Assembly: GCA_964631325.1 (NCBI GenBank)
Contig: CAZVWJ010000012.1
Span: 224-64,223 of the forward strand
Direction: 5' to 3'
DNA: 64,000 bases
Source of the DNA: an uncultured bacterium
GTDB taxonomy: Bacteria; T1Sed10-126
In this document: in pieces, positions 266 through 60,652 of the stretch
Position numbering within the stretch: position 1 is the stretch's first letter
How the letters are laid out: every line of letters begins with the position of its first letter
The notes under the pieces: model-generated
What the model was told of the DNA's origin: nothing
The model's input: only the letters and a program-made list of their open reading frames with translations
Database searches by the model: none
Program-made: the position numbers and the translations under genes

Positions 266-1113
266 TTTTATCCTTCTTGTAAGGGATCAAATGAAGAAGC
301 TGACCGTCCGCCAGACCGGGAACGTCCTCGTAGAACTGAATAATCATCTGAATAACTGGCCTCCGCCTTATCCGCTACCAGAACTCAACTAAATACACAA
401 CAATCTATCCAAAATTTTGAACTACCGAATAACTAACTGTTACGCTTAAAGACTGAGTATAAGAAGATTTTGATCTTAAATAGGTTTATTTAACAACTTC
501 ACACTCGCATTTGTTCTTCAGTAGACATCTTACTCAGGAGGGGCTCAATATTCATAATTATCACATCACTAAAAAGTTTACCCTAACCCTGAATAAAAGT
601 CCAATTTTGATCCAAACTCATAGAATAGATTTTGCCCCTTCTTAAACTTCGGTCAAATTTTCATTACGTGCGCACAAACTTAAGAAAGGTGTTGACCCCG
701 GGGCAACAAAATTGGTAGGATAGGAATACAGTCAAAGAAAAATGAAGCAAGCGGGGTCACCCGCTCTTTTTTCATGTACACTTTCCTGGCCGGCCTTTTA
801 TCTTTCACTTCTCCCAATATCCCGAAAACTTCCAGCCACTGAAGATGCTAATCACACCCGGAGAACCTGGCAAACCCGTGCAGGTTTTCACAATTGTGAA
901 CAGGTGCACGGGTATAGACTGGAGGATGGGGAAATATTGGCCAATTTTTCAACGATTTGTCGGTGTAAACCTAAAACCTGGAAGGCTGGCACTGGAGTGA
1001 AGGCTGGTATTAAAGTTCAACTACGACCCAAATCTATTAGCGACATCCATTGGAATCTCAAATCTCAACCTCCGTCCCAAGAAAGAACCCGCGAGAGGAT
1101 TATCTTTCCAAAA

Positions 1114-12564: not shown

Positions 12565-15500
12565 TTATTTGAATTTCTTCATTTGTGAGTCCATATAGCT
12601 CATAAACTATCCGATCAATTTCTTGGTCGGTTTCTTCGATTTTTTTCTCAATGTTTAATTTTTCGGAGTCCGATGTTACTTGAGTAAGACTTCCATGTAA
12701 ACTGAGCATCCTATCGGCTTTTTCGGCGATTTGATCGCGCAGTTCAACTTCAGTTGAGTTCGATTCATCGATTTGTTTGATGGGGAGTTGCTCCATGTAT
12801 TGGTAGATATAGCGAAGATATCCGCCTCGGTAAGATGAACAGATGTTTTCGTAATAAAAGGCAAGTAGTTTCGAGTTGAGTAAACCCAGTAAATAAGGAT
12901 CGTCACTGGATATTATGTAAGCCGTGTTTACACAATAATAATTGCCATCTCGATCCAGTGTGAAGTTACCCCTTTCAGCAATATCTGGAACTATTAATTT
13001 GGGCTTTTCAAATTCATCGTAATAATCGCAGGCTCGAAGTTCCCACCAGTATTCTCCTTGATCGTATCGTTCCCGAGCTCTTTCCTCATATTGACTCAGG
13101 TATCCGGTAATAGCTGGATACTGTTGCTTCAACCATTGCCATTCATCCGCGTCTTTTGGAGCATTTTCATTAGTCCAACCGTTGGGGAAGAAAATTAGAT
13201 AATGTTCTGGTGACAAGGATGCATATCGCTTGATATCGCGGCCCTTCAAAAATGGTTTAAGCCGTTCATCGCTGGCTGGGTTTTTATCAATTAATTCCTG
13301 ATACTTAGCCGAGTCAATTACAAAGGCTTTGTTCAATCCTGTTTTAATCCCGTAGTGAATTCCACCATTTACGACTTTTTTTAAAGGCTTGGACTGATCC
13401 CTTACTTTACGAAGCAAATCTTGAGTTTCTTTACCTACAAGTGTCCAACTTCCTCCCGTTAGGAATTCCTTATTCATAGGAAATGAATCTTCCCGGAAGA
13501 GAACAGATAAATCTCCGAGAATATCGTCTTGTTCATTGGCAACGTCGAGGGCGGTGAATTCACCATTAAAAGAAGTCGGAGACATCATCAGAATACAGGG
13601 GTAAGTCGTGGCGGTATCGAAAACTGTATAATCGCCGAAATTGATCAGTTTTCGAATCGGTTGGTCATCGAGCCAACTGCGAAGATTCTTTCCGTATTTG
13701 GCTCGCATCCATTTGTTGGACACAATGTAGCAGAAGGTCCCCTCCTGGTTCAATAACTTGTAACCACGTTCGATGAAATAAGTGTAGAAATCCGCGGTGC
13801 CATAATAAGTTTCATAATGATTCTTAAAATATTCTTTCTGTTCTCCCAAGTCCTCCTGTCTGACGTAGGGCGGATTAGCGATAACTACATCAAACCCGTT
13901 ATTTTCCAGGAAGACTTCGGTGAAGTAGAGTTCCCAGAGGAAGAACGGGCGACGGCGGGACTGTTTTATTTCTTCGAGTTCTTTTAGTTTTTCTTCTTCG
14001 TCGTGTTCCTCCAGGGTGGCTTCAATGAGTTCCCAGTGTAGCTCTTCAATTTCTTCGCGTAATTCTCGTTTTTCGCTCTTGCGGACGGCATCCGCGAATT
14101 CTTTTTGAAGTTGATCCAATTCTTCTGCCTTTTTACGGGCCTCACTGTGGCGCTGGAAGAGGTCAGGGGTTCCATGCTGGTTTTGTTGTTCACTCTCTAA
14201 ATTTCCTATTTCTTTTTTTATCTTTTCCAATTCATTGTCCAAACGTTTCTGTTCGGCTGATGGAAGATTACCGGACTGGTGGCGGTCTATATATTGTTTT
14301 TCAAGGGACCGTTGTTTCTCTTTTAATTCTCGGCGGCGGGCTTCGGTATCGGCTTGCCGGTCACGGATAAGTTCGGAGTCAAACAGTTCAATCCCCTCGT
14401 ATTCCTCGACCAGCGAGTCGCCCTGCATAATTCGGTACTCGAGGTTGGGTAGGGGTTTAATCTCTTCATAGTCTTCCTCATCAACGACCAGGGAGAGCCA
14501 GAGGCGGAGCTTGGCGATATCAACGGAACTGGGATCAATATCAACGCCGTAGAGATTATGTAAAATAGCGTGGCGCTTGAGCTCATACTGGCTGCGATCT
14601 TCACCGGAATCAAGATAGGGAGTGAGCAGGCGGCGCAGTTTGACGATCTCCTGCATCAGGCCGACCGGGAAGGCGCCGGAACCGATTGCCGGGTCGCAGA
14701 CTTTAATCTCGGCAAGTAGCGCGTCAATTTTGTTGACCCGCTCACGGATAGAATCGGGAATTTTTTGTTGGCGTTCGGCAAGATCACCTTCCGCAACGGC
14801 CGCTTCGTGTTGAAGCAGAAGATCACCGTGTTCAACGACTAATCTTATGTCCGCTTCAGGAATGTCCCCCCCATCTGTATCTTCCCCCACCGGGGGGGAA
14901 GAGCTTTCACCCTCACCCCGGCCCTCTTCCATCGAGGGAGAGGGAGTTTGGTCCCCCTCATCCGCCCTGCGGGCACCTTCTCCCACCGGGGGAGAAGAAT
15001 CACCCCCATCTTGCTCTTCCCCCATCGAGGGGGAAGAGCTTTCACCCCCACCTGTGTCCTCCCCCGTCGAGGGGGAGGAGATGTTTTTGCTATCTGGGGA
15101 GAGATTATTTTTATTGTTCAAATGTGTGGAGAGGTAATTGACCAGGCTTTCCTGGCACATGTAGTGGACTATTTCGCGGGGGGTGTAGAAAGCGCCCTTT
15201 GATTTGCGGTCCTCGACGTCAAGCATGCGCTCGTAGACCTTGCCCAGCATCTCGGGATCAACGGCGACTTCTTTTTCCAGCGGTTCATCCTCGCGGATGG
15301 TGAAGTTGTAGCGGTCGAAGGTGTCAAAAATCTCGGCGAAGAGTTCGTCGGGGAGGGTGAGTTCAGTCTCGTCCCAGGCGTAGTTATTTATCGGTTCAAA
15401 TAAACCGCCGTTTAAAAAGGGAATGCGGCACTCCAGTTTTGAATCCATGGCGCCCCGGCCGCGGTCGACGGCAAGCGAGTTGTAGAACAGGTGTTCGAGC

Positions 15501-16454: not shown

Positions 16455-16540
16455 TTAATTTAACGCAAAGGCGCAGAGGCGCAAAGAAGTATCTCCGTGG
16501 GGACGGAGGTTGATTATTGATTAACTTTTTTAGCTCGCGG
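16455..16540. repeat. dispersed intergenic repeat cluster (aacgcaaaggcgcagaggcgcaaag + ggggacggaggttgattattgattaacttttttagctcgc)
   Basis: same motifs recur at ~21980-22155, 28329-28354, 28707-28750 and partially at 25558-25600. Confidence 0.75.
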
Positions 16541-16658
16541 GTGGGCGCTGATTAGAGATTAACTCCTCTGCACTATTGCGCGATTATACAAATTTTGCGT
16601 CCGAGCCTGCTGAAGTTTTTTTCGGAGACAATCATTCATTAGATTCTCAAACATGTAA

Positions 16659-16900
16659 TCAGTCAAGCTGAAGTTCCCAGTGCCCCTCTTTTCTGCCGCC
16701 AATACGTTCTAATACATCCTTTTCTCTCAATTTCCTGATATTTTTCTGCACAGCTCGCTGACTTATTCCTATATCTTCAGCAAGTTCCGAAATCGTTGTT
16801 TCTTTATTTTGTCCAATCAATCCCAGAATTTTCTTCTCACTTTTCCCGAATCTTTCCCCGTTAAGTACCCTGGCATGTATTCCATCAAGTATCCTGTATC
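16659..16900 (-). pseudogene. 3'-terminal winged-helix fragment of an AlbA_2-family gene (no start codon, upstream in-frame stop)
   Basis: translates to ..GKSEKKILGLIGQNKETTISELAEDIGISQRAVQKNIRKLREKDVLERIGGRKEGHWELQLD*, aligning with the C-terminus of the 505-aa AlbA_2 protein at 25693-27210; stop and 3' flank (~85 bp) are identical to that gene. Confidence 0.55.
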
Positions 16901-16930
16901 AATGTTTCAGTCAATATCCAGCTCACCTTT

Positions 16931-16978
16931 TACTGTGACATTACTGTGACATTACTATGACATTTACTATGACATTAT
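16931..16978. repeat. 11-bp tandem repeat x4 (tactgtgacat / tactatgacat)
   Basis: directly visible immediately 3' of the AlbA_2 gene stop (16987). Confidence 0.7.
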
Positions 16979-16986
16979 GTTCAAAA

Positions 16987-18402
16987 TTAGTTTGGAAATT
17001 GATAAAACGCAGTTGGGTCAGTTTCCGATTCTGCCTTTCTTTCCAAAACACCTTTTTCCTGTAAACTTGTTAGTTTTCTATTCACAGTTCGCTTTACTTT
17101 CCCTATCAACTCAACGGCTTCCTTAGTGGTTATTTTTTGATTTTTTTGGATGTAATTAACAATTTTTTGCTCATCCTCATCAAGATCAACCTCATTTATC
17201 CCGTCATTTATCCCGTCATCCTTCTTTGTCGGTTTCAGTGGAATAATGGTCTTAAAAATGTCATCCTCAATTAATTTCGGGGTGGCCCCGGAAGTATAGA
17301 TTCCACAGTATTTAAAGGTATTGCGGACGCCGGAACCAAGCTCATCAGCACGTCCAATCTCCTTGAAAAAACTGGCAATCACCGGGTTCTTGGGATAGGG
17401 CGAGAAATTATCCGGGTTGATTTCCCCCACGTTGCGGGTGCGGTTGGCGTTCTCCGTCAGAACTCTGTCTTCCTCAATGATCAACTTAGCTGGATAGGGA
17501 TTCGTGTATTCCCGGTGAATCAACAGGTTCCCGATGACTTCGTGAAAAATAAGATCACGGACGCTTATTCGTTGATCGCCTTCGTTGTAGTATTTATCGG
17601 GAAGATGCTTTTTCACGAAGGCCATGAGCCGATCGTAACTTTCAATTAAATTCGTCCGCACGTCATCTCTGTCGTCGTAGCGATCCTTATTTTCAACCCG
17701 CTTGATCGCATCCGTCCGGTGATGTGGACACACGTCCCGAATAACCTCGTCCTTTCCCAGCAACAGAACGGCTGCCAACGTATACCCGGATTTGTTTGAC
17801 TGGCGGTCCTCCCGGTAAAGACCGGCTGAACGAAGAAGCTCCCGGTCCTCCAATTCCAGCCACGGATGGTTCTTACGTTCACTACGGGCAAGCTTCCGTA
17901 TTCGCTCAAACAGATCGTTTTTGAAATCGCCCATTTCTACAAACGGGTAAATCTCGTTCTCCGTGTAGGTCGACTGCTTGCGCCTGTAAAGCTTACTTAC
18001 CTGCTCAGGCTGGTCCGTTATATCCAGATCCCCGTCCTCATTACGGTCATAGATTTCCCCACATGTCCGGTGGACCTGTGAGCTTTCCGGCACGAAAGTG
18101 TGGAGGACGTGCTTTCCCTCGTATTCAATGGTCTCCGGGGACAAATAAAATGGCGGATTGAGTTTTTGTGAATTGTTGGCATTGTTCACGATGCTGTTAA
18201 TGACATCCTGAACACATTGTTCCAAAACGCCCACTACTTCCTTGTCGTCATTGATTCCCAGGAACAGGTGACCTCCGTTGCGGTTAAGGAAGGCACAAAT
18301 CGTTTCAAAGGCGTTCTCATTGAGTTTCGAGCGGGATTCCTTGAACTCAACCTCAATTCCCTCGCCCGCCTGGAGATATTGCTCGAGTTCTTCCGGTTCC
18401 AT
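16987..18402 (-). CDS. AlbA_2 (Schlafen-like divergent AAA/putative DNA-binding) domain protein with HATPase_c_4-like and C-terminal wHTH regions
   Basis: N-terminal VEFKESRSKLNENAFETICAFLNRNGGHLFLGINDDKEVVGV matches AlbA_2 pattern; C-terminal HTH; abuts helicase gene (stop 18403 / start 18402). Confidence 0.7.
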   Translation of the reverse strand: MEPEELEQYLQAGEGIEVEFKESRSKLNENAFETICAFLNRNGGHLFLGINDDKEVVGVLEQCVQDVINSIVNNANNSQKLNPPFYLSPETIEYEGKHVLHTFVPESSQVHRTCGEIYDRNEDGDLDITDQPEQVSKLYRRKQSTYTENEIYPFVEMGDFKNDLFERIRKLARSERKNHPWLELEDRELLRSAGLYREDRQSNKSGYTLAAVLLLGKDEVIRDVCPHHRTDAIKRVENKDRYDDRDDVRTNLIESYDRLMAFVKKHLPDKYYNEGDQRISVRDLIFHEVIGNLLIHREYTNPYPAKLIIEEDRVLTENANRTRNVGEINPDNFSPYPKNPVIASFFKEIGRADELGSGVRNTFKYCGIYTSGATPKLIEDDIFKTIIPLKPTKKDDGINDGINEVDLDEDEQKIVNYIQKNQKITTKEAVELIGKVKRTVNRKLTSLQEKGVLERKAESETDPTAFYQFPN

Positions 18403-21400
18403 TTAATCCGCCCCCCGTTGCCCGGAATTTTCAGCGTTAACCAAATACTCGGAGAGGATTATTTCCCGGGGCTGATCCTCCCGGCTACTGCCCGGGGACT
18501 CCTTTTCCAGCAGGCCGTCCGGGATGTGACAGCGGAGAACTTCTAAAATTTTTAGGGGATTGCCGGTTGGATTATCAAGCGACTCCAATTTCTGTTTTAT
18601 TTTCCGGGTTGTCTGCCGGGCCGGACGCGCCCCCTGGACAAGATCTATTACCGAGCGAATGTATTGTTGATCGGATTCAGTAAATTTATCGTGGTTTTCC
18701 ACCGCCTGTAGATACTGGACGATGAACTGTTCATTTGTTTGCCCGCCCTGGCGCGAATGTTCAACTTCTTCCTGAAAAAGCTCCTTGAACTGCTGTTTGT
18801 TCTGATTTAATTTTGAATAATAATCGTCCGGCAAATCAAGCCGCTCGGTGCCCTGTTCACATTCCATCAGCGTGGCCGCCCTGTAAAAAGGAAGCGCCTG
18901 GGCCCCGTCCTCTTCGCAGAGGTAGAAACTCTTAACATTCCCCTTGCGAAAAAAGGACAGCAGGCCGGAAGCGGAATTGTCGCCGGTTATTTCTCGAGCT
19001 GTGCGGGCTTTCTTCGGCAACTTCTTGAGCCGGTCAAATAACTCCGGGTTTTGATCACGAACCTCGCGGATTTTGGCCAGGTAATCAAGTTCCGGCGAGG
19101 CTTGATCGCCGCCCTTCTCGTAGGTCTCGGGATCATTGAGCTTCTCATACAACTGTTCCCCGAAAAAACTGTGCGTGGTAACTTCCTCCGCTTCCGTCAG
19201 ATATTTGGCGTCCTCGCCGAGGATATCGTGGAAGGATTGCAGTTTACTGGTCACAATTGCCTCAAGGTTCAAATGTTCCTCCGCCTGGCTGGTCGGGAAG
19301 AAATTAAAAATGTGGATCTCTTCAAAAGGGGTGCCAATACGATTGACGCGGCCTGAACGCTGAAGAACCTTGGTCGGATTCCAGGGTAAATCGTAATTTA
19401 CAATTAAATTCGACTGGTGCAGATTAATTCCCTCGGAGAGAACATCAGTGGTGACAAGGAAACGGATTTCGTCCGCTCCGTTTTCCGGTTCAATACCGGG
19501 ATCAAAATTCTCCCGAATCCTGTCCCGGGCCACCCGCTTGCCCACGGTAGCACCCTGGTAAAGTCTTCGGCTGCTGGAATAAAACATCACCCGGTCCGGG
19601 TAACGCTCGTTAAGCTCCTCGTATAAATACTCCCCCGTCTCCGCGGACTCGGTAAAAATTACAGCAGGACTTTTAGAAAATAGCTCGTTTGATTCAATCT
19701 CTTCCAGCAAACTCTCCAGCTTGGGATCAGTGGTGACATTATTCCAGAGGTGTTTGATTTTCCGGAGAAGCTGGAGATCTTTATTAATGTCAGCAATGAA
19801 ATTATCCGAGAATTTTTCCGCCGCCCAGCGCTTGGCCTTATCCTCCTCAACCAGCTCCAGGAGCCGGGCTTCATTGTCTGCTTCCGCCGAATCCCAGAGT
19901 TCATTTATATTCACGTCTTTACTTACGTAGACTGCTCCCGATTCATACATATCAACAAAATTTTCGTAGGACTCAATAAACCGGCCGAGAGTATTCTTGA
20001 ACGCCAGAAAGCTGCTCTCAAGTCTTTTCACAATTAAACTTTTCATAAACCCCCGAATATTTCGCTGGGACTGCTTCTCGAACTCTTCGACCGGTTCTTC
20101 CAGGTATAAGAGGGGCACATAACGGGCATAGTCCATTTCCTTCAACAACTGAATTGTTTCCTCGAAAACTTCCTCGGTTCCGGAATCAAAATTATATAAG
20201 AGCCGGTGGGGAGGCTTGACCTCGGGGAACTGCACGCCCCGCTTTTCCAGGTCTTCCTTGTAATGTTTTTCCACGTCGGAGCGGGTCCGGCGAATCATTA
20301 CATACTTGAGAATCTTTTCCCTGACCTCTTCGGCCACTTCATCCAGGACATCCTGGTAGCCGGGATCATCGGGGTCGTAATTGCGTTTGCGTTTTTCCAA
20401 TCCTTTGAAAAATTTATGGAGATTTTTGACCCCGGGAATGGTGCTCTGCTTGGGCTCCTGGAATAACTTCAACTGCCGGTAAATATCCTGTTCCGTGTTA
20501 TTGAATGGTGTGGCGGTGACAAGGATAACATCTTTGCCCCAGCAAATCTCCAGCAATTTTTCGTATTTTTCCGTCTGTTCATTACGGAAGCGGTGCGCTT
20601 CATCAACAAGGATTGTGCTGTATTTATCGGGGTTGTTTCTGAGAACGTGATGGAGCTTACCGTGGGACTGGACTTTATAACCCCGGACGCCAAATTCCCG
20701 GAAAGTATCTTCCCAGTAATCCTCCAGCACAGGAGGACAGAGGATTAGTTTCTGCCCTTTCATTTTCTGTGCTAAGAGAGCGGCAATAAAAGTTTTACCC
20801 AAACCGACCACGTCGGCGATAAAAACTCCGCCATATTCATTTAGGATTCTTTGGGCCTGGGCAACCGCCTGTTTCTGATACTCAAGGTCGATGTAGCCCG
20901 GCGGCAGATAATCATCAAAGTCGCGGTCAAGATTGATTTCTTCCTCAAAATATTCGTATAAAAATTTGAGGTACAGCTCATAAGGAGTGATTTCATCATT
21001 CAACCAGGTCTTTCGCGGAATTTGCTCGACAAATTTTTCTGTTATTTCCGTGGATTCCTTCCAGAGCTGTTCAAACTGGTCCTCGGCAAAACGGACGTCC
21101 TCTCTATTTTTAAGCTCCACGTTAAATTCCCGCCGGCCAACCAGACCGGACTCGGAGAAATTGCTGGAACCGGTTATTACCCGACCATAATCCCGGTCAG
21201 CTTCGGAAAAACGGCTGATATAAACCTTGGCGTGGATATCTTCAGAGGGATAGACTCGGAGTTTCAATTTGCCGGACTGAAGCCAGTTGATAAAGGTCCG
21301 GATTCCCGTTTCAACTTCAGGTGCGTCCTCGGAAAGCTCCAGTTCTTGTTGGACCTGCTGTAAATACTGTTCTTCGGCCTGGGTAAAGTTCTCCATATCA

Positions 21401-21648
21401 AGTTTTCGCTGGGCCGACTGATAATGTTCAAAAGTCTTTTGGCCCACGTTGATTCCAACTAAAATATGAATTTCCTCGACGGACTCCAGGTGTTCGTAAA
21501 GGCGATGGAAACCGGAAAGACGAAAATAGCCGACGAGGACATCAAAAGTTCTGGCGTCGGGGAGTGTACTTACAAAGCGATCCAGCAGAGAGGAATGTTC
21601 CTGGTTGGTGAAGAAGGTCAGGTCAGTATCGGTTTCTGAACCGTTCAC
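18403..21648 (-). CDS. PLD-family nuclease domain fused to SNF2-family (DEAH) helicase
   Basis: HxK PLD motif DIHAKVYISRF...GSSNFSESGL; helicase motif I GLGKT, motif II VDEAHRFRN, C-terminal helicase motifs (QRSGRVNRIG); 1081 aa. Confidence 0.8.
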   Translation of the reverse strand: MNGSETDTDLTFFTNQEHSSLLDRFVSTLPDARTFDVLVGYFRLSGFHRLYEHLESVEEIHILVGINVGQKTFEHYQSAQRKLDMENFTQAEEQYLQQVQQELELSEDAPEVETGIRTFINWLQSGKLKLRVYPSEDIHAKVYISRFSEADRDYGRVITGSSNFSESGLVGRREFNVELKNREDVRFAEDQFEQLWKESTEITEKFVEQIPRKTWLNDEITPYELYLKFLYEYFEEEINLDRDFDDYLPPGYIDLEYQKQAVAQAQRILNEYGGVFIADVVGLGKTFIAALLAQKMKGQKLILCPPVLEDYWEDTFREFGVRGYKVQSHGKLHHVLRNNPDKYSTILVDEAHRFRNEQTEKYEKLLEICWGKDVILVTATPFNNTEQDIYRQLKLFQEPKQSTIPGVKNLHKFFKGLEKRKRNYDPDDPGYQDVLDEVAEEVREKILKYVMIRRTRSDVEKHYKEDLEKRGVQFPEVKPPHRLLYNFDSGTEEVFEETIQLLKEMDYARYVPLLYLEEPVEEFEKQSQRNIRGFMKSLIVKRLESSFLAFKNTLGRFIESYENFVDMYESGAVYVSKDVNINELWDSAEADNEARLLELVEEDKAKRWAAEKFSDNFIADINKDLQLLRKIKHLWNNVTTDPKLESLLEEIESNELFSKSPAVIFTESAETGEYLYEELNERYPDRVMFYSSSRRLYQGATVGKRVARDRIRENFDPGIEPENGADEIRFLVTTDVLSEGINLHQSNLIVNYDLPWNPTKVLQRSGRVNRIGTPFEEIHIFNFFPTSQAEEHLNLEAIVTSKLQSFHDILGEDAKYLTEAEEVTTHSFFGEQLYEKLNDPETYEKGGDQASPELDYLAKIREVRDQNPELFDRLKKLPKKARTAREITGDNSASGLLSFFRKGNVKSFYLCEEDGAQALPFYRAATLMECEQGTERLDLPDDYYSKLNQNKQQFKELFQEEVEHSRQGGQTNEQFIVQYLQAVENHDKFTESDQQYIRSVIDLVQGARPARQTTRKIKQKLESLDNPTGNPLKILEVLRCHIPDGLLEKESPGSSREDQPREIILSEYLVNAENSGQRGAD

Positions 21649-21733
21649 ATTTCCAACCTCAAATATATTTTTAAAATGATTAGCTCTTCATGCCTAACTC
21701 CGTAAGAACAACATTCAATATTTTAACATCGGA

Positions 21734-22160
21734 AAAAGCTAAATCGAGGATTCTGTCACGGTAAATCAATCTTACCTGATTTTTGGGGGAATTTTAATTA
21801 TTTTTATTGAGGGACAAAGGGGAGCGTGATGGGGGGACCGTCGCAGAGGCGACATAGCGCAGAGGCGGAGAGGCGAAAGAGCATTAAACCTCGTGATGAG
21901 GGAAAATCAAAGGCAACGGCAAAGTCAAAATGGATTGCCGGGTCAAGCCCGGCAATGACGTCGTTGTATGGATTTCCGTGGGGACGGAGGTTGATTATTG
22001 ATTAATTCTTTTAGCTCGCAGATTAGCGCAGAAAGTGCGGATTTATTATTTTTGTAAATCAAGTTCAAAACCTTCGGATCCTCAGATTAGTGGGATTACA
22101 CGGATTGAAGTTCAAATTCAAAGGCAAGATAACGCAAAGGCGCAGAGGCGCAAAGGAAAT
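21734..22160. repeat. composite intergenic repeat block (several repeat families, hairpin ccgggtcaagcccgg)
   Basis: 21734-21810 recurs at 27408-27482; 21860-21960 recurs at 28550-28644; 21980-22020 and 22131-22155 recur at 16461-16536 and 28329-28750. Confidence 0.75.
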
Positions 22161-22412
22161 TCAATTGAGTAATTGAAAAATTTTAACCCTTAGTTTTTCT
22201 ACTTCCAGAACATCTTGAACATTATTTTGTTGACGAATTTGTTCCAGGGAGAGCAAAGTTTCCAGTTTTCAGTTTAAAGTTTCAAGTTACAGGTTGAAAT
22301 TCAAAATCAATAAGGATTTTGTTCAGGCCGAAGAACTTATTGAAAATTTTACCGAGCATGGGTTCCCCCCAACATACTCCGATTATATTTTCCGCTTCCA
22401 AACCAAGAGCTG

Positions 22413-23171
22413 TTAACCGTTCAACTGGAGGCCTTCTTTGACGCCGAACTTCTTCTCCAGTTCCGGTTCTTTTTCGCCTTTGACGATAATGAGCAGATAG
22501 TCCCCGGTTTCCAGTGTCTCCGAACCCTCCGGATTCTTGATCAGTTCCCGCCCACCGTCACCGTTAGCCTTACTCATCCCCACACAGACACAATTTTGCT
22601 CGTTTTTAATTTCCCAGAAAGCTTCGTCGTAGGTAGAATTAAGATACTTGCATTCCTCAGAAATTAAATACTGCTGTAAATCATAATCCTCATCCCGCTG
22701 GGTACCCCGTAAGATATCATCCTCGAAGAGAGCCACGTCAGACTCATACATATAACTCGTGACCAACTTAGAAGCAACTACAAACTTGGAGACAGCGTAA
22801 GAGACACCGGCATTTTTAAAGGTCTGCTCCAGGTCGTCGTTTTCAAGCACAGCTACGTATTCCAGTTCTTTGTAGTGTTTTTTCATATTCAAAATAGCGA
22901 TCAGGCTCTCATCGTCGGTGTCAAGATTAACAAACACCCGGAGCGAAGCTTCTATGTTAAACTCGGAAAATTTTTCAAATCCGGTTAACTCCCGGTGAAC
23001 AGCGTGGACGTATTCTCCGGGAAATTCTTCTTCTATTTCATCCACGAACTCCGGCTCCTTGGCGACTACAACAACGTTACGGCGCGACGCCACTAAACGC
23101 TGGATAATCATTTCACTGAATGCATCCCAGCCTAAAATAACGACGTGATTTTCAAGTTCTTGCGGTAACAT
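22413..23171 (-). CDS. soluble RCK/TrkA-N + TrkA-C domain protein (K+ channel regulatory subunit)
   Basis: HVVILGWDAFSEMIIQRLVASRRNVVVVAKE Rossmann-like RCK start; no TM segments; 18 bp downstream of the channel gene. Confidence 0.65.
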   Translation of the reverse strand: MLPQELENHVVILGWDAFSEMIIQRLVASRRNVVVVAKEPEFVDEIEEEFPGEYVHAVHRELTGFEKFSEFNIEASLRVFVNLDTDDESLIAILNMKKHYKELEYVAVLENDDLEQTFKNAGVSYAVSKFVVASKLVTSYMYESDVALFEDDILRGTQRDEDYDLQQYLISEECKYLNSTYDEAFWEIKNEQNCVCVGMSKANGDGGRELIKNPEGSETLETGDYLLIIVKGEKEPELEKKFGVKEGLQLNG

Positions 23172-23189
23172 TGAATTCCCTCCGGAAAA

Positions 23190-24245
23190 TCAGAATTTAA
23201 TTCCCTGACTGACTCCAAAAAAAGCTTCAATTTCCTCCATGTTTTCGCCCGTAGCAATTAAAACGAGATAATCTCCCGCCTGCACCTTTACATCGTCAGG
23301 CGGGAGTTTTAACAGCCGGTTATCTTCGGGCTGATTCTTACGGAGCCCGACAACCGGTTCACCATATTCCTCGTAAAAATTTTTAAAAACTTCTCCATAA
23401 TTTCTGTCGTCAAATTCACAATTTTCCGTAACCTGGTATTGCTGGAACTCATGGTCACCATTTTGAGAAATAGAGGCCATTAAATCATTCAGATAATCCG
23501 CCACGTCCGGCTCAAAAATGTAGCTGGCAATCACGCCGGAGGCCGCATCATGTCTGGAAATAACATAGTCAGCACCATTTTCCTTCAGCGTGTCCACCAG
23601 CTCAACATTTTCAACAGTAACAACGTACTCCGGCTGAGAGAATTCGTCCCGAAGATTCAACAAGCCAACCAGAGTATCAGTATCACTATCTGGACTGATC
23701 AGGACCCGGGCCGCTTCATTGACATTGACTTTGGAATAATTATCAAAGTTGTCAAGATCCGTGAACAGGGAAAAAACTGTGTCCCGGTCGAACTCGTTGC
23801 GGATTAAATCAATACTATCCCGGCTATCAGTGATGATCGCCACTTTTTTGCCGGAAAGGACTAACTCCCGGACCACGAGCTCGGTAAAATTATTCCAGCC
23901 GATGACTACGAAATGGTTTACAAAATCAGTGCCATCGTAACCGAGCCGTTTGCGTTCCCGATACTCGGCAAACTTATCCCCGATTTTGCCAACAAGGAAG
24001 CCCAAGAAGCCAAGGCTGGCGAGCACGAAAGCGCCACCGATTATTCTACCGTAGAGCGAGACCGGAAAGTAGTCCCCGTAGCCAACCGTGGTCAGGGTGA
24101 CCAATGAATACCAGAAAGCGTCTCCAAAATTTTGGATATTGGAATCAGCATAAGGTTGTTCAACCACAACCAGCAGTTTCAACAGTAGGAAATAAGCAAC
24201 CACACCCAGAATGCAGTAAAGGGTTCTCTTTACTTTTTTATCCAT
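23190..24245 (-). CDS. RCK-gated K+ channel (2TM pore + TrkA-N/TrkA-C), MthK-like
   Basis: selectivity filter TLTTVGYGDYFP between two TM helices; RCK domain VVIGWNNFTELVVRELVLSGKKVAIITDS. Confidence 0.8.
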   Translation of the reverse strand: MDKKVKRTLYCILGVVAYFLLLKLLVVVEQPYADSNIQNFGDAFWYSLVTLTTVGYGDYFPVSLYGRIIGGAFVLASLGFLGFLVGKIGDKFAEYRERKRLGYDGTDFVNHFVVIGWNNFTELVVRELVLSGKKVAIITDSRDSIDLIRNEFDRDTVFSLFTDLDNFDNYSKVNVNEAARVLISPDSDTDTLVGLLNLRDEFSQPEYVVTVENVELVDTLKENGADYVISRHDAASGVIASYIFEPDVADYLNDLMASISQNGDHEFQQYQVTENCEFDDRNYGEVFKNFYEEYGEPVVGLRKNQPEDNRLLKLPPDDVKVQAGDYLVLIATGENMEEIEAFFGVSQGIKF

Positions 24246-24246
24246 T

Positions 24247-25323
24247 TTAGAATCGCAGCCCCTGTTCTACCTGGAAATAATTTCCAACCGCGCCCATTAT
24301 TTCATTGGTCACAATTAGAACCAAATAATCCTCCGCCTGGATCGTATCTGCGTCAGAAGGTAAAATTTCTAAATGTCGTTCTTCGTCCCCGGGCCGGCTA
24401 TAACCAACCAGCAAACAGCCAAGCTCATTGTACAAGAATTCAAATGCTTCTCCGCAATTTTCACCAACCAATTCACAGTCAGGTTTCACATAATATTGTT
24501 GCAATTCATGATCCCCTTCCGATTCTACGGAGGTCATAAGGTCATTGAGGTAAGCGGCCGCATCCGGTTCAAAAATATTACTGGCAATCAGCCCGGAAGC
24601 AGCGCGGTAACGTGAAACTACATAGTCAGCTCCATTTTCTACCAGAGTCTCCTCCAAATCCTCATTACGCACGGTAACTACGTATTCGGGGCCGTCATAG
24701 TCATCCTTCAAATTCAAAAGGGTGACCAGTGTATCGGAGTCACTGCCGGGACTGACCAGAACCCGGCTGGCAGCTGAAATATTCACCTTTTCAAATCTTT
24801 CGTAATTATCCAACTCCGTAAATAAAACAAAAACATCCTCGGTCCCGTACTCATCGTAAATAAGGTCAATATCGGCTTTGCGATTGGTGACGACTGCAAC
24901 TTGCTGATTGGATTTTAGCAGCTGTTTTACAACCAGCTCAGTAAATTGATTCCAGCCGATAATTAAATGGTGATTTTCAAAATCAGTTCCCGCGTAACCG
25001 AGCCGACGATATTCACGATACTCATTGAACATGTCACCAATTTTACCAATAAACACACCGAGCATCCCCAGACCGGTAAGGACAAAGACCACGGAAATAA
25101 TTTTGCCGAAAAAAGTCGAAGGAAAGGTCATGAAATTACCAGCGCTCCCCAAGCCGGTCGGATTAAGAACTACATACCAGAGGGAATCAACCAGAGTGGC
25201 ATCAGGCTGGGAAGGAGAGAATTGTTCGAATTGAAAATAAGTATAGACGAGTAACACGTAGACAACCAGGACAAGGACAGCATACAGACAATATTTGAGC
25301 CACTTTTTATGCTGAGGGGACAT
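24247..25323 (-). CDS. paralogous 2TM+RCK channel subunit with degenerate selectivity filter
   Basis: same architecture as neighbour but filter region reads VVLNPTGLGSAGNF instead of TVGYGD; 1-bp intergenic gap to the next gene. Confidence 0.7.
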   Translation of the reverse strand: MSPQHKKWLKYCLYAVLVLVVYVLLVYTYFQFEQFSPSQPDATLVDSLWYVVLNPTGLGSAGNFMTFPSTFFGKIISVVFVLTGLGMLGVFIGKIGDMFNEYREYRRLGYAGTDFENHHLIIGWNQFTELVVKQLLKSNQQVAVVTNRKADIDLIYDEYGTEDVFVLFTELDNYERFEKVNISAASRVLVSPGSDSDTLVTLLNLKDDYDGPEYVVTVRNEDLEETLVENGADYVVSRYRAASGLIASNIFEPDAAAYLNDLMTSVESEGDHELQQYYVKPDCELVGENCGEAFEFLYNELGCLLVGYSRPGDEERHLEILPSDADTIQAEDYLVLIVTNEIMGAVGNYFQVEQGLRF

Positions 25324-25557
25324 ATTTAATGCTCCCTTCGGAAGCCAAAATCATTCACCTATGTGAACGGTCTAGCAGACATCAGTCAAAAGGCAGACAA
25401 CTCGTGGAGCGTTCCGGTTTACAAACTGATTCCTCTTTATAGAGTCACTCTTCTTTGGATTTTATACTCTACCTGAATATTTTAGATAAAAATTCAAATA
25501 AGGAAAACACTTTCTTGGTTGGGGGATTGAGGAAAAATTTCAAATTCCTGTCAGAAG

Positions 25558-25690
25558 CTCGCAGATTGGGGCGGGTGGACGCAGATTAATGATTAATTTC
25601 TCTGCACTATTGCGGGATTATACAAATTTCGTGTTCGAGCCTGCTGAAGTTTTTTATGGAGACAATCATTCATTAGATTCTCAAACATGT
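25558..25690. repeat. intergenic repeat (ctcgcag...tctgcactattgcgggattatacaaattt...) shared with 16536-16660
   Basis: near-identical block continuing into the 3' end of the AlbA_2 gene. Confidence 0.7.
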
Positions 25691-25692
25691 AA

Positions 25693-27210
25693 TCAGTCAA
25701 GCTGAAGTTCCCAGTGCCCCTCTTTTCTGCCTCCAACTCGCTTTAAAATTTCTTCCTCCCTGAGTTTTTTAATATTCCTCTCTACTGACCGCGGGCTTAT
25801 TCCAATGTTATTTGCGAGCTTTTGAATGGTAATGTTTTCATTCTCGTATATTTCCTGGCATATCTCTCTTTGGTTTTGATTCATCCTAGCCCAATTTTTC
25901 CCAACCTTTTCCGACGCTTTTCCGACGCTTTTCCGACGCTTTTCCGAACCTGTGTCCACACCTTTAAATTCAGAATGAATGGGTAGGGTTGCAAGAAAAT
26001 AAGTGCGATTTCTGTCCGTTTCAAAGCGGGCCTCCGGAGAACCATTTTGTTGCATGTTTCTCCGGATCTTGGGGACGCCTGTGCTGCGGCCCTCGGAGAG
26101 GTCCAGTTCCTTGAGGAAATCACCAATTCTGCGATTGCGGTAGCGCCGGGCGATGACTTTTCCCTTCTCAAAATCCTCCATATTTACGGAGCGAACCGGT
26201 CCCGGAATACTCAGGACATTGATTTCGTTCGGGGATATCCGGACCTCGATCGGTTCCCGTTCCTGGTAACTCCGGTGGTAGGCCGCGTTAACGATAACCT
26301 CTTCCAGGGCGGGATAAGGATAGTTGTAGAATCGTTCGGCTTCGGCCCGGTCATCGTGCTTAATGACCCGTTCCTCGATAACGGAGTTTTTCAAGTATGA
26401 GAGGGTTTGCTGGATCTGATGGTCCAGCGGCCCCTGGAAAATCTTCTCGTCGAAGACGTCTCCGCCTTCCTGGTCGCGGAAGTGGACTACTTCAATTTGT
26501 GCTGTCGGAAAGTATTCGTGCGGTTCCGGCGTGAAGAAAAGAAGGCCAACGTTCCGGGGAGCAAGATGGGAGTTTATTTTATCGGCAATTTCCATCTGCT
26601 GACAGAGTTCACCAAACGGAACGTCATCGATGTCCTCATACAGTTCACTATTGACTTTTTTCAGAAATTGGCGGATCAGTTGCTTGTCCAATTCATCAAC
26701 GTCAACACGCTGATTAATCCGATCATCAAAAGGTATGTTGGCTGTTAACTCAATTAACTCCGTCCGAGTTTGGCCGCGAGCTCTAACCGTTTCGGCCCCC
26801 TGGCGGATATAATATTCATAGTCGGGGTTGTCACCAAAAGAATCTGGTGCCTGATAGGGACGATTCTGGCCGCCGGGAATCCAGATGACAAGGATGTTTT
26901 TGCCGTCGTAGACCTCAGGAACCGGGCGAGGTTGATACTCCGGATCGAGCCGTTTGCATTTTCCACGCAGTTCCTTCTGAATCTGCTCGATCTCGGTGGG
27001 ATTTAATCCGGCAGGAGGAAGCACCGGCTGACCGCTGTCACTGTCAATACCGAGAATTACGTAACCACCGCCCAGGTTGTGAAAATCATTAGCGAAAGCA
27101 CAGATTTCCTGGATGGTAGAAAGAGGCTGCCAGCCCTTTTTGAATTCGAGCCTTTCCGACTCCACCGCTCGGCCGTGGATAAGACCATCCAAGCTAACTG
27201 GTAAACTCAT
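25693..27210 (-). CDS. AlbA_2 (Schlafen-like) domain protein with HATPase_c_4-like and C-terminal wHTH (paralog of 16987-18402)
   Basis: LEFKKGWQPLSTIQEICAFANDFHNLGGGYVILGIDSDSGQPV; EEVIVNAAYHRSYQEREPIEVRI; C-terminal HTH ...GGRKEGHWELQLD. Confidence 0.7.
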   Translation of the reverse strand: MSLPVSLDGLIHGRAVESERLEFKKGWQPLSTIQEICAFANDFHNLGGGYVILGIDSDSGQPVLPPAGLNPTEIEQIQKELRGKCKRLDPEYQPRPVPEVYDGKNILVIWIPGGQNRPYQAPDSFGDNPDYEYYIRQGAETVRARGQTRTELIELTANIPFDDRINQRVDVDELDKQLIRQFLKKVNSELYEDIDDVPFGELCQQMEIADKINSHLAPRNVGLLFFTPEPHEYFPTAQIEVVHFRDQEGGDVFDEKIFQGPLDHQIQQTLSYLKNSVIEERVIKHDDRAEAERFYNYPYPALEEVIVNAAYHRSYQEREPIEVRISPNEINVLSIPGPVRSVNMEDFEKGKVIARRYRNRRIGDFLKELDLSEGRSTGVPKIRRNMQQNGSPEARFETDRNRTYFLATLPIHSEFKGVDTGSEKRRKSVGKASEKVGKNWARMNQNQREICQEIYENENITIQKLANNIGISPRSVERNIKKLREEEILKRVGGRKEGHWELQLD

Positions 27211-27407
27211 AAAAACCTCTTCTCAATCCTGGTGGACAATGGAATTTTTTGATCTTTTTATAGAAAGACAGAACCAACCTGGAAAATACACACACCACCA
27301 GAACTCCGGGCTCAAACAGTCTTTTAGTTCCGGATTGGCGCGTTAAAACCAACAATGACAAATCGTTAGAAGACTCCGCTTGTGAGACATCAACTATTTT
27401 AGCATTG

Positions 27408-27482
27408 AAAAAAACTAAATCGAGGATTCTGTTACGACAAACACAATATTACCTGATTTTTGGGGGAATTTTTAATTATTTC
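27408..27482. repeat. intergenic repeat (aaactaaatcgaggattctgt...acctgatttttgggggaatttttaattatt) shared with 21734-21810
   Basis: direct visual alignment, ~85% identity. Confidence 0.7.
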
Positions 27483-27582
27483 AGGGGTGCAACGGCTATT
27501 TATTTTATTGCCGCAGGCCCAGGATTTAGAAAATTCTGAGTTGAAGGTGGAAAAATTAAGAGCTAAATAGCTATAATATAAT

Positions 27583-27843
27583 TCAGGCGAGTTTTTCTGT
27601 CTGGTGAGAAATAAATCTTAGGAAAATTCTCTGTTCTCTGTCAGTTAATTCTTCGAAACGTTCCTTGAATTCAGACGGAGAGAGATTATTTAGTTTTATA
27701 TCCCCCTGCAGAGCATCCACCGGAGCCGGCAGAGTCTCCGCGGTTACTTCTTCGTAGTTTTCCTCGAAGTAATTGGTTTCAGATTCTATCTGCTCCCGCT
27801 CATTCTCCCAGTAACGCACATCCGAATCATCAATCATCATCAA
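27583..27843 (-). CDS. small acidic hypothetical protein, possible antitoxin-like partner
   Basis: 86-aa ORF overlapping upstream small ORF by 4 nt (ATGA). Confidence 0.3.
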   Translation of the reverse strand: MMMIDDSDVRYWENEREQIESETNYFEENYEEVTAETLPAPVDALQGDIKLNNLSPSEFKERFEELTDREQRIFLRFISHQTEKLA

Positions 27844-28121
27844 CTCTCCCAGGCCGTGATAAAATCACTGGAGTAAAATTCTGTCTCCGGTAATAGTTTA
27901 ACACATACTGTTAGCCTTTTTCCACTTTGTGTTTGTCCTTTAACAACATAATCCGCGGCGGCTCTTCTTTTATTCTTATAAACTGAGCGGTTTGGGTCTT
28001 GTAAAACTTCAACAATATCCTCAGGCGTAATATGACCTCGCCCTGATTTTTTCCGGACGTGTTGTATCCGTTTTTGCCGAATTTTAACCGGCATAAAATC
28101 AATTTTCAAAATTAACTCCAC
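27840..28121 (-). CDS. small basic protein, DUF4258-like (toxin-like) candidate
   Basis: 93 aa; pattern H..KK.GRGHITPEDIVEVL....V......AADYVVKG....GKRLTVCVKL resembles DUF4258 small proteins; assignment from memory only. Confidence 0.35.
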   Translation of the reverse strand: MELILKIDFMPVKIRQKRIQHVRKKSGRGHITPEDIVEVLQDPNRSVYKNKRRAAADYVVKGQTQSGKRLTVCVKLLPETEFYSSDFITAWES

Positions 28122-28328
28122 CCTTTTGATATTTTATCCCCGGAAGCTTCCACAATTCCTTCCTAATTACTTTCTAAAATCGGGGCTCCCCCTGTAGATT
28201 AATTTTACCTGACTCCCAGAAAAATTTAAATTTTCACGGAAATAAATAATTTTTTAGAGGAACGAGGGGATAAAATCGTGCTGCGGGTTCTGAGTTGCGG
28301 GGTGGAGATCAAGTTCAACACCAAGGAT

Positions 28329-28750
28329 AACGCAAAGGCGCGGAGGCGCAAAGGGGAACGTGATTGAGTGACGAGGGGAAACCGTATACCGTGACGAGGT
28401 GATGGGGGAACTGTCGAAGAGGCGAAGATGCGAGCAGGCAGAGAGGCGGAAGAGCATTGAATCTCGTAATTGAGTAATTGAGTGATTGAATAAAAGCAAA
28501 GGCAAAGGGAACGCGGAAGAACTCGGAGAGGCGAAGATGCGAGCAGGCGGAGAGGCGAAAGAGCATTAAACCTCGTGATGAGGGAAAATCAAAGGGAACG
28601 GCAAAGTCAAAATGGATTGCCGGGTCGAGCCCGGCAATGACGGTCTTTCGTATTCTGAATTCCGGGAGCAAACCCCGGAATGACGTGCTTAATGCTGGAT
28701 CTTCTCGGGGGACGGAGTTTGATTATTGACTAACTTTTTTAGCTCGCAGT
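28329..28750. repeat. composite intergenic repeat block with internal ~115-bp duplication and hairpins (ccgggtcgagcccgg, ccgggagcaaaccccgg)
   Basis: gaggcgaagatgcgagcaggc(a/g)gagaggcg... unit appears twice (28395-28460, 28508-28575); 28550-28644 matches 21860-21960; 28707-28750 matches 16497-16536. Confidence 0.75.
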
Positions 28751-28899
28751 TTGGGGCGAATAGAGACAGCTTTTGGTCGAAATTTATGACTTTTTGTAAT
28801 ATTTGTAGGTTATAGCCTATTAATTCTTGACTTTTAAGTAGGTTTTAGCCTACACTTTTAGTGATTTAATGAAAGTTATAACCTAAGGAGCTGATATAT

Positions 28900-34145: not shown

Positions 34146-34193
34146 GCTAATACTCTAATACTTGAAAAATTTTTCAAGTATTAGAGTATTAGC
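34146..34193. repeat. perfect 48-bp palindrome gctaatactctaatacttgaaaaa|tttttcaagtattagagtattagc
   Basis: exact inverted repeat with no spacer, in convergent intergenic region. Confidence 0.8.
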
Positions 34194-60346: not shown

Positions 60347-60652
60347 AATTTACAGCCTCCTTATTAAAGCTGGATAACTACTCACCTAATCTTTTCCCCC
60401 TTGATGGGGGAGGACTAAGGTGGGGGTGAAAAAGGGTTTTGAAAGGCCCTTAAACTCAGCTATTTTGTCGAAAAAGCTGGGTTGTCCCTCTCACCCTGGC
60501 CCTCTCCCACCAGGGGAGAGGGAATAGTGAGTAGTTACAAAATAGGATATTCCGTGTAAAATTACCTGTGTTATTATAAAATTTAAGTCCAGCTTCTGAA
60601 AGAGATTAACGACTGATGGTTTTACAGTTATATTTTCCGGAGGTAATTTTTT

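Follow-up and report, generated by a model that had tools for sequence, protein, structure and literature searches.

The long gaps between the defence genes of this island are a patchwork of two described kinds of repeat, arrays of an octamer and duplicated gene flanks. Within the window, the 64,000-nt stretch of DNA that was analysed, the five long spacers at 16.4-28.9 kb are probably mosaics of REPs, solo terminal inverted repeats (TIRs), octamer arrays and the flanks of AlbA_2-wHTH genes. Two of the five repeat units, b and c, were shown at the level of sequence to belong to classes described in 2013, namely TIRs of the TIRYT type and CGTC-tagged REPs.

Distribution of the repeats in the window

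Five repeat units (a-e) had been proposed in an earlier note on this DNA to recur between the gene modules of a defence island. All five were located where the note had placed them, at a frequency far above chance expectation, and the gene modules matched their description; the second AlbA_2 gene (16987-18402) was grouped with the helicase. The window has sixteen spacers of at least 150 nt, of which units a-e fill five consecutive ones, a pattern with a rough and after-the-fact probability of about 0.003. A self-BLAST of the whole window placed all copies of a-e within 16.4-28.8 kb and none in the remaining eleven long spacers, and the order of the units differed between junctions. That the repeats delimit every module is true as a description, but it is mostly what would be expected, largely because intergenic repeats sit between operons.

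The hairpin of unit c is a CGTC-tagged REP

Two copies of unit c (21863-21960 and 28545-28642), 98% identical, end in a hairpin that also occurs a third time.

21931..21960, minus strand: CGTC REP hairpin 1, the 3' end of unit c, CGTC-ATTGCCGGG-CTTGA-CCCGGCAAT-CCA
28613..28642, minus strand: CGTC REP hairpin 2, loop CTCGA
28656..28685, minus strand: CGTC REP hairpin 3, a variant, CGTC-ATTCCGGGG-TTTGC-TCCCGGAAT-TCA, missed as a separate unit in the earlier note

CGTC-tagged REPs were defined by an unpaired terminal CGTC (variants TGTC and CCTC), a stem of 8-9 bp with complementary A/T at stem positions 1 and 2, a loop of 4-5 nt of few major types and a short unpaired tail with the consensus CCA (PMC3733652). 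Such REPs are interspersed in large numbers within a genome, usually paired head-to-head as dimers, in a super-family that takes in Neisseria dRS3 and Rickettsia RPE-4 and RPE-6, and no transposase link was found for them (PMC3733652). Read as sequence, the c hairpin agrees with every feature of this definition. The tag was CGTC in all three hairpins of the window and TGTC in the contig L002. The stems, with 5' arms ATTGCCGGG (twice) and ATTCCGGGG, have nine pairs starting AT, with one G-T pair in the third hairpin; the loops are CTTGA, CTCGA and TTTGC, of which CTTGA is also the loop of the alphaproteobacteria-like copies, and the tails are CCA, CCA and TCA. Across eleven REP copies the tag, loop and tail were fixed, seven of the nine stem pairs varied on both sides, and 98% of the stem cells were paired. 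We know of no enzyme that mobilises CGTC REPs.

A 26-mer of the c hairpin was found exactly in 18 IMG/VR contigs of 60-71% G+C, and near-matches fell in unannotated stretches of alphaproteobacterial replicons and of a Sulfurovum plasmid. The three copies in the 64 kb examined were single or head-to-tail, none being head-to-head, and the related locus L041 carried five CGTC REPs in 10.7 kb, one facing pair among them. Like the described elements, the hairpins combine the terminal tag with a 9-bp stem opening A-T, T-A, a 5-nt loop (CTTGA) and a CCA tail, are extragenic, show compensating stem changes around fixed tag, loop and tail, and lie in mosaic spacers among other repeats, as described for Neisseria (PMC3733652). 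They differ in that the host is an uncultivated bacterium of 45% G+C rather than an alphaproteobacterium, in their arrangement and low number (three in 64 kb), and in lying 20-60 nt from a TIR of transposase type.

The core of unit b is a solo terminal inverted repeat

Unit b occurs in three good copies and one decayed copy, and a TIR of a second type occurs once.

16499..16526, plus strand: unit b core, copy 1, GGGGACGGAGG then TTGATTA twice, a solo TIRYT-type terminal inverted repeat
16491-16551, plus strand: whole unit b, copy 1, including the tail TTTTTTAGCTCGC...
21980..22006, plus strand: second copy of the unit b core, with a CGTC REP 20 nt away (whole unit 21972-22032)
28708..28735, plus strand: third copy of the unit b core, with a CGTC REP about 23 nt away (whole unit 28700-28760)
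25520..25600, plus strand: degenerate copy of unit b, core decayed (GGGGGATTGAGG...), tail AGCTCGCAGATTGGGGC kept from about 25556
1052..1078, minus strand: solo TIR of the second type, GGGACGGAGG then TTGAGAT twice, the type that flanks the L039 transposase gene

The core copies were 95% identical, and a 22-mer of b at up to three mismatches occurred three times in the window against none in 100 shuffles. The core (GGGGACGGAGG and two TTGATTA) matched 27 of the 29 nt of a TIR around a transposase gene in L003, a related MAG, where a perfect 29-nt inverted repeat (GGGACGGAGGTTGATTATTGACTAACTGG, 100% complementary) brackets an ORF of 315 aa. This ORF matched Pfam Y1_Tnp (1.3e-9), as an IS200-like HUH tyrosine transposase, and H60, H62 and Y119 were invariant in 19 of its homologues; C-terminally, an HTH gave Pfam matches to HTH_23, HTH_24 and Bac_DnaA_C. 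The enzyme scored 34 bits against the NCBIfam RAYT equivalog model (cut-off 80) and is therefore not a canonical RAYT. Four more homologous loci (L039 to L043, three distinct genes) had flanking inverted repeats of the same design, and a G-rich head followed by two tandem heptamers was present in four TIR types. Tyrosine transposase genes between long TIRs (TIRYTs), with a GGGGWSAS head motif and moderately abundant families of solo TIRs, have been described (Di Nocera, De Gregorio & Rocco 2013, PMC3733652). Seven of the eight positions of this motif agree with the b head GGGGACGG and all eight with the L043-type head GGGGTCAG. Judged from these matches, the b core belongs to an HUH tyrosine transposase of RAYT-like kind as its terminal inverted repeat, and so to the TIRYT/TIRtron class.

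Points of likeness to the TIRtrons and TIRYTs (PMC3733652) are the HUH/Y1 enzyme, present as one copy per contig between housekeeping genes, the flanking inverted repeats of 25-30 nt with a G-rich head near GGGGWSAS, and the solo copies scattered in spacers. Points of difference are the C-terminal HTH of the enzyme, the TIR body of two tandem heptamers, and a window that holds solo TIRs only, the b copies all in one orientation and each with a lineage-specific tail. No Y1 transposase gene or remnant was found in the window. The TIRtron and TIRYT systems are related to the REPtron/RAYT systems (Nunvar 2010; Bertels and Rainey 2011).

Solo TIR copies were also located downstream of unrelated genes in L001, where one follows an LRR protein gene, and in L002 and L041. 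High copy number is a hallmark of REPs; the b core was rare in public data, with three matches in 185,579 GTDB genomes, and a metagenome scan for it gave no relevant match. A REPIN, reportedly defined by Bertels and Rainey as two inverted REPs a short distance apart that form one long hairpin, was considered and rejected, as neither b nor the c hairpin has an inverted partner in the window. The TIR of the second type, at 1.08 kb, sits where G+C drops from 40% to 33%.

Octamer arrays and duplicated gene flanks

Arrays of an octamer with the consensus about CGVARAGG make up unit a and the 5' part of c, and a period of 8 was reported by TRF at every a and c site.

16459..16487, no strand assigned: unit a, copy 1, CGCAAAGG, about three octamer units
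22128..22156, no strand assigned: unit a, copy 2
28326..28354, no strand assigned: unit a, copy 3
21826..21930, no strand assigned: 5' part of c, copy 1, array CGCAGAGG (21842-21875) and conserved spacer
28508..28612, no strand assigned: 5' part of c, copy 2, array CGGAGAGG (28524-28557) and spacer
28399..28470, no strand assigned: partial third copy of c, array CGAAGAGG (28415-28454), without REP, absent from the earlier note's list

The copies of unit a were 96-100% identical, and similar purine-rich words accompanied the REPs in the spacers of L041. Units a and d had no counterpart outside the window, and an 18-mer of d gave three viral-contig matches, about the number expected by chance. 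Units d and e adjoin AlbA_2-wHTH genes.

21711..21804, minus strand: unit d, copy 1, ending 63 nt upstream of the start codon (21648) of the helicase
27387..27481, minus strand: unit d, copy 2, ending 177 nt upstream of the start codon (27210) of AlbA_2-505
16576..16711, minus strand: first copy of the unit e block, made up of ~50 nt from the end of a wHTH coding sequence and the ~90 nt that follow
25610..25745, minus strand: second copy of the unit e block, located where the intact AlbA_2-505 gene (25693-27210) has its 3' end
16659..16898, minus strand: remnant of the C-terminal wHTH of an AlbA_2 paralogue, ending ...GGRKEGHWELQLD*, with stop codons upstream

The two copies of d aligned at 21719-21803 against 27395-27481 with 87% identity, and alignment of the two upstream regions showed TGnTAAAAT, a putative extended -10 element, kept in both. 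The e block was 87-100% identical among three copies and is contained in a longer duplication (16537-16808 against 25571-25842) that extends into coding sequence and shows 92% identity across the first 166 nt. These alignments, together with the identity profile of e and the translation of the remnant to which one e copy is attached, showed that neither e nor d is a free-standing repeat: both are duplicated flanks of operons that contain AlbA_2, e on the 3' side and d on the 5' side.

Folding and searches for known elements

The repeats had been described as stem-loop-containing, which holds for the c hairpins and partly for b. The first and second c units folded with z = -2.8 and z = -1.8, and a 5' hairpin was present in two of the three b copies, in one of them clearly better than in its shuffles; units a, d and e folded no better than shuffled sequences. 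The description of the units as MITE- or REP-like similarly stood for the b core and c hairpin as REP-like elements and for none of a, d and e. MITEs have terminal inverted repeats at both ends of a unit of 100-400 nt and a target-site duplication. A MITE reading of any unit fails because no unit in the window is bounded by a pair of inverted repeats or has an inverted partner there. Rfam 15 gave no match at gathering score in the window, E values up to 5 yielding noise only.

Proposed origin of the mosaic spacers

Under the mosaic reading, the TIR and REP modules would have entered the lineage as non-autonomous elements, a Y1 transposase serving in trans from a gene that would now lie elsewhere in the genome or have been lost. 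Octamer arrays probably travel together with REP and TIR, the three forming a composite of about 200 nt. Within the island, the copies have common flanks that reach far past the 27-nt core, so their multiplication was probably due for the most part to segmental duplication and homologous recombination. The window copies of the b core have one orientation, extended common flanks and a clustered position within one 12-kb stretch, which fits local duplication better than dispersal by transposition. The modules would be tolerated in, and would lengthen, the spacers between co-directional operons, where hairpins rich in G+C may end transcripts or make them more stable and recombination could gain a foothold at the repeated patches.

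Mosaic intergenic elements are known as BIMEs in E. coli, NIMEs in Neisseria and RIMEs in Rhizobium, and BIMEs bind IHF, gyrase or Pol I. The spacers resemble these in joining REP-type palindromes to other short motifs in variable order between co-directional or convergent operons, but the partner motifs here are octamer arrays, a TIR and its tail.

An alternative is that the b/REP composites are dedicated cassette-junction sites where defence cassettes would be put in, cut out or exchanged by a recombination system that might be the Y1 transposase itself, comparable to integron attC sites or to the repeat-flanked "minimal mobile elements" of Neisseria. Breakpoints of homology at b suggest a possible role of this kind: the part of the window that is homologous to L002, a contig of another MAG, takes in b, e and the AlbA_2 gene, with one limit at the outer edge of b and the other 5 nt ahead of the start codon. 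One block of b, e and gene end is present in two places in the window, an AbiEi/AbiEii module in L041 is bracketed by solo TIRs of the same orientation beside a TIRYT gene, the G+C step at 1.08 kb carries a TIR of the second type, and the units are restricted to the island. We nevertheless consider dedicated junction sites unlikely. The ORFs scanned in the window included no integrase, recombinase or transposase, the unit order varies by junction, and the supposed cassettes are large operons, two of them with a putative upstream segment (unit d) of their own. The same repeat classes lie between the housekeeping genes gcvP and lplA in L041, the LRR protein gene of L001 is followed by a solo TIR, and the closest AlbA_2 homologues in other contigs are without any unit. 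attC arrays lie close to an IntI tyrosine recombinase, and their junctions combine R''-L''...L'-R' symmetry with the core GTTRRRY. Repeats between co-oriented modules, one of them a small toxin-antitoxin-like pair, recall such arrays; unlike them, the window has no integrase, no R''/L''/L'/R' architecture, no GTTRRRY core and no attC site that could be found, while its operons reach 4.7 kb, two share an upstream segment and the units change order. An attC assignment for b was rejected, its palindrome GTTGATTATTGATTAAC, as read from the sequence, misfitting RYYYAAC/GTTRRRY, and no recombinase being among the scanned ORFs.

It is very unlikely that the repeats are by-products of local segmental duplication during island growth with no ancestry in mobile elements, even though flanks are shared past the cores, the units are clustered and 87-100% identical, and e and d are plainly duplicated gene flanks. 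For b and c this account is contradicted by their presence in other genomes in unrelated contexts and by the b core elsewhere bracketing a transposase gene as an inverted repeat; a 26-mer in 18 contigs and a perfect 29-nt repeat are neither chance nor contamination. It is also very unlikely that the units are cis-regulatory or small-RNA elements, whether AlbA_2-wHTH operators, 3'-UTR RNAs or terminators selected at operon boundaries. In favour, each of three pairwise comparisons, one of which spans genomes, found higher conservation in the e block (87-100%) than in the wHTH coding sequence next to it (60-67%), TGnTAAAAT precedes two AlbA_2-containing operons, and the REP hairpins are stable in the c units. 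Against such a role, e, d and a fold like shuffles, no Rfam family matched even at the relaxed E value, promoter-like and terminator-like sites were not commoner than in shuffles, and the REPs have no T run directly after them.

A related and quite improbable extension of the mosaic reading is that CGTC REPs are coupled to the TIRs of Y1 TIRYTs as a composite (array, REP, ~20 nt, TIR, tail) that may serve the import, duplication or exchange of cassettes by the transposase or by host recombination. A REP lies 20-60 nt from a TIR head twice in the window and once each in L002 and L041. This adjacency bears on what moves CGTC REPs and comprises these four cases only. If the composite were real, a mobiliser for CGTC REPs would be identified and an assembly of defence islands linked to an HUH transposase described.

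Implications for annotation

The two repeat classes of 2013, CGTC REPs and TIRYT-type TIR families, extend with this finding to a poorly sampled lineage of low G+C, where they occur next to each other between the genes of a defence island and mark the ends of duplicated or transferred segments. The repeats account for the over-long spacers and the spurious small ORFs within them, and for a break in the short-read assembly at one unit. The stretch at 16.66-16.90 kb was flagged as a gene remnant.

Repeat units between the defence-gene modules

The five repeats (units a to e) that an earlier note had placed in the spacers between defence-gene modules were all recovered at their sites by a repeat search of 15-30 kb and by self-BLAST of the whole window, together with a partial copy of unit c (28399-28470) that had gone unlisted. 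The units and the genes between which they lie are as follows.

16459-16487, 22128-22156 and 28326-28354: unit a
16491-16551, 21972-22032 and 28700-28760: unit b, with a tail-only copy near 25556
21826-21960 and 28508-28642: unit c, the final 98 nt being 98% identical
21711-21804 and 27387-27481: unit d, 87% identical
Two copies, both where the earlier note had claimed them: unit e
Minus strand: Type IIG restriction-modification enzyme gene
Minus strand: HKD-Snf2 helicase gene and an AlbA_2-wHTH gene
Minus strand: three TrkA/K+ channel genes
Minus strand: second AlbA_2-wHTH gene, 505 aa
Minus strand: DUF4258 small pair
End of the gene series: divergent HTH gene, then sbcCD

Copies of units a to e were confined to 16.4-28.8 kb of the window, where they filled five consecutive spacers of the 16 that were at least 150 nt long (p ~0.003, a rough estimate made after the fact), and the remainder of the window consisted of housekeeping genes. 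A 22-nt pattern from unit b, allowing at most 3 mismatches, occurred three times compared with none in 100 shuffles. The repeats are real, and are best filed as described repeat classes (units b and c) in mosaic spacers, plus duplicated flanks of AlbA_2 genes.

Other identities were considered and rejected. The units had been likened to MITEs, a reading that failed as neither the repeat search nor self-BLAST found inverted partners, and the same lack removed REPINs from consideration. An integron attC or cassette array was discounted with no integrase among the ORFs scanned and no attC core, an Rfam search found no known RNA family, and scan counts of sigma-70 promoters and intrinsic terminators equalled those in shuffles. 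The stem-loops claimed for the units were borne out in the unit c hairpins but not in units a, d and e, which folded no better than shuffles; a small RNA or structured 3' UTR was set aside for these three on that ground.

Unit c carries a CGTC-tagged REP hairpin

Read on the minus strand, the hairpin of unit c is CGTC-ATTGCCGGG-CTTGA-CCCGGCAAT-CCA. CGTC-tagged REPs are defined by a terminal CGTC (or TGTC) and a CCA tail, and have stems of 8-9 bp in which A/T pairs nearly always come first and loops of 4-5 nt (Di Nocera et al., PMC3733652). Both unit c hairpins agree with this description in every part (tag, stem, loop and tail), as does a third hairpin at 28656-28685 with small deviations, and on its sequence the unit c hairpin is accordingly assigned to the CGTC REPs. 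Further variants were present in L002 and L041, two related loci. Across 11 copies, positions G2, T3 and C4 of the tag were invariant while the first base was C or T, the loop and tail were largely conserved, and seven of nine stem pairs were changed on both sides with 98% pairing, a value partly built in since several of the copies came from a scan that demanded pairing. That requirement has no bearing on how constant the tag, loop and tail are.

The exact 26-mer of the hairpin was found in 18 IMG/VR contigs of 60-71% G+C, often with an inverted partner hairpin having another stem and identical loop and flanks. Unannotated parts of Shinella, Sinorhizobium and Skermanella replicons and of one Sulfurovum plasmid contained near-matches. 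Megablast with the hairpin alone gave no match, and a literature search on its sequence or its spurious peptide found no papers.

Unit b has the sequence of a transposase terminal repeat

The core of unit b was present at three loci in one scan of public genomes; a metagenome scan gave three loci, all unrelated, and a viral scan gave no matches. In L003, a locus of a related metagenome-assembled genome, a 315-aa ORF lies between the two arms (1949-1977 and 2952-2980) of a perfect 29-nt inverted repeat formed by the core. This ORF matched the Pfam Y1_Tnp and C-terminal HTH models, and the NCBIfam RAYT model only below cut-off. Homologues of this ORF were 45-59% identical, occurred in one or two contigs each and, where fetched, lay between housekeeping genes; H60, H62 and Y119 were invariant in 19 of them. 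At four fetched homologous loci (L039 to L043; three distinct genes), inverted repeats of one common design stand on either side of every gene: two tandem heptamers preceded by a G-rich head, which is GGGACGGAGG, GGGACGGGGG or GGGGTCAGAC. The window core, GGGGACGGAGG followed by two copies of TTGATTA, shares this design. Tyrosine transposase genes between long terminal inverted repeats (TIRs) have been named TIRtrons or TIRYTs, with a common GGGGWSAS motif, and solo TIRs in moderately abundant families have been described as well (PMC3733652). On its sequence, unit b is a transposase TIR; no TIR-flanked Y1 transposase gene was found within the window.

A different type of solo TIR was identified at 1052-1078 on the minus strand, GGGACGGAGG followed by two copies of TTGAGAT, with exactly the design of the TIR beside the L039 Y1 transposase gene. 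At this point, where the low-G+C part of the island has its left boundary, the G+C content declines from 40% to 33%.

The Y1 TIRYT genes of L041 (3855-4926, and likewise L042) and L043 (9905-10996) are inserted between gcvT and gcvH and between a DAPDH gene and thrS, respectively, with TIRs doubled on one side or both. In L003, L041/L042 and L043 the right TIR overlapped the ORF at its 3' end; in L039/L040 it abutted the last ORF base.

Units e and d as flanks of AlbA_2 genes

An alignment of 16455-16990, 25520-26060 and L002, with a sliding identity profile, placed unit e in a block of ~135 nt (16576-16711 corresponding to 25610-25745) that was 87-100% identical in all three pairs and comprised the final ~50 nt of wHTH coding sequence together with the following ~90 nt. 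The adjoining wHTH-coding stretch was only 60-67% identical next to the block, and 30-67% over 25760-25895, 16726-16861 and L002 440-575. Further 5', the 16.5-kb remnant lacks homology, so that identity of 77-93% was limited to the 505-aa gene and L002. The stretch is a DNA-binding segment of the AlbA_2 paralogues that has diverged between sequences that stayed conserved. The 16.5-kb copy of unit e is joined to a wHTH remnant (ending ...GGRKEGHWELQLD*, with stop codons upstream), and the L002 AlbA_2 gene is likewise decayed. Unit d aligned upstream of the helicase operon and upstream of AlbA_2-505, the 505-aa protein gene, with TGnTAAAAT, a putative extended -10 element, kept in both copies. 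From these alignments, units e and d are identified as gene flanks. Exact-protein look-ups found neither AlbA_2-505 nor P0124 on record, and units a to e were absent from L007 to L017, the loci of the closest AlbA_2 homologues.

Tandem arrays of 11 nt were seen just downstream of the stop codon of the helicase-associated AlbA_2-471 (TTACTATGACA, 4.3 copies, 16930-16977) and inside the AlbA_2-505 coding sequence (CTTTTCCGACG, 3.8 copies, 25906-25947). The counterpart of the latter in L002 (565-625) differs in sequence and extent.

Mosaic spacers and the origin of the repeats

The b copies of the window and L002 have in common ~12 nt to the left of the core and the tail TTTTTTAGCTCGCAGATTGGSGC on the right. 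A distance of 20-60 nt separates the TIR head from a CGTC REP on its outer side in two window copies, in L002 and in L041. Unit a and the 5' part of unit c are period-8 arrays (CGCAAAGG, CGCAGAGG, CGAAGAGG, CGGAGAGG), and module order differs among the three large spacers of the window. Since L041 has purine-rich words, REPs and TIRs in the same style, including in the gcvP-lplA spacer, this class of spacer is not peculiar to defence genes. Viral scans gave no matches to unit a and three to an 18-mer of unit d, about chance expectation, and plasmid BLAST with the composite spacers gave no match.

The TIR and REP modules probably entered the lineage as non-autonomous elements of the REP/RAYT world and, because copies share flanks, orientation and neighbourhood, would have multiplied within the island mainly inside larger duplicated segments. 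They would lengthen the spacers between co-directional operons, where transcripts may be influenced by the stable hairpins and homologous recombination could use the repeated patches as substrates. The evidence for recombination at the units and for their use as junctions is suggestive: L002 homology stops at the outer edge of unit b, a block of unit b, unit e and gene end occurs twice in the window, and an AbiE module of L041 is located between solo TIRs, although the same would be expected just as much of any repeat situated between operons.

An independent short-read (Logan) assembly, L044 from run SRR12088346, was identical to window 17008-21796 and covers the helicase and AlbA_2-471 with 100% identity. 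The contig stops within unit d on one side and ~30 nt beyond the 16930-16977 array on the other, and both stops look like assembly breaks caused by repeats.

Other features of the window

The intact Type IIG restriction-modification ORF contains four perfect G+C-rich hairpins (14868-15080; stems e.g. TCTTCCCC, GCTCTTCCCC). Their position, about aa 440-511, is between the N-terminal region that matches the Type IIG profile and the methyltransferase domain, and related copies occur at 60395-60431 and 60500-60522 in a housekeeping spacer. These hairpins seem to represent a third family of REP-like repeats, one that inserted into the gene without shifting its frame. A 60-nt direct repeat (212-270 and 2544-2603, 88% identical) flanks 2.3 kb of low-G+C sequence, in which two small ORFs lack a Pfam match, and may mark where a small inserted element begins and ends.

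The NuoD-like (Complex1_49kDa) protein encoded at 46903-48039 matched only itself at E <= 1e-60 among 5.8 billion proteins, a threshold that was too strict, and the result suggests that the lineage is very sparsely sampled or that the protein is an unusual paralogue. A perfect 48-nt palindrome (34146-34193; 20-bp arms, 8-nt centre) is located in the spacer from panD to an ornithine/aspartate carbamoyltransferase gene. Three carbamoyltransferase (OTCase/ATCase-fold) paralogues, two of them adjacent, were present within 5.5 kb (34348-35265, 37595-38632 and 38635-39675).
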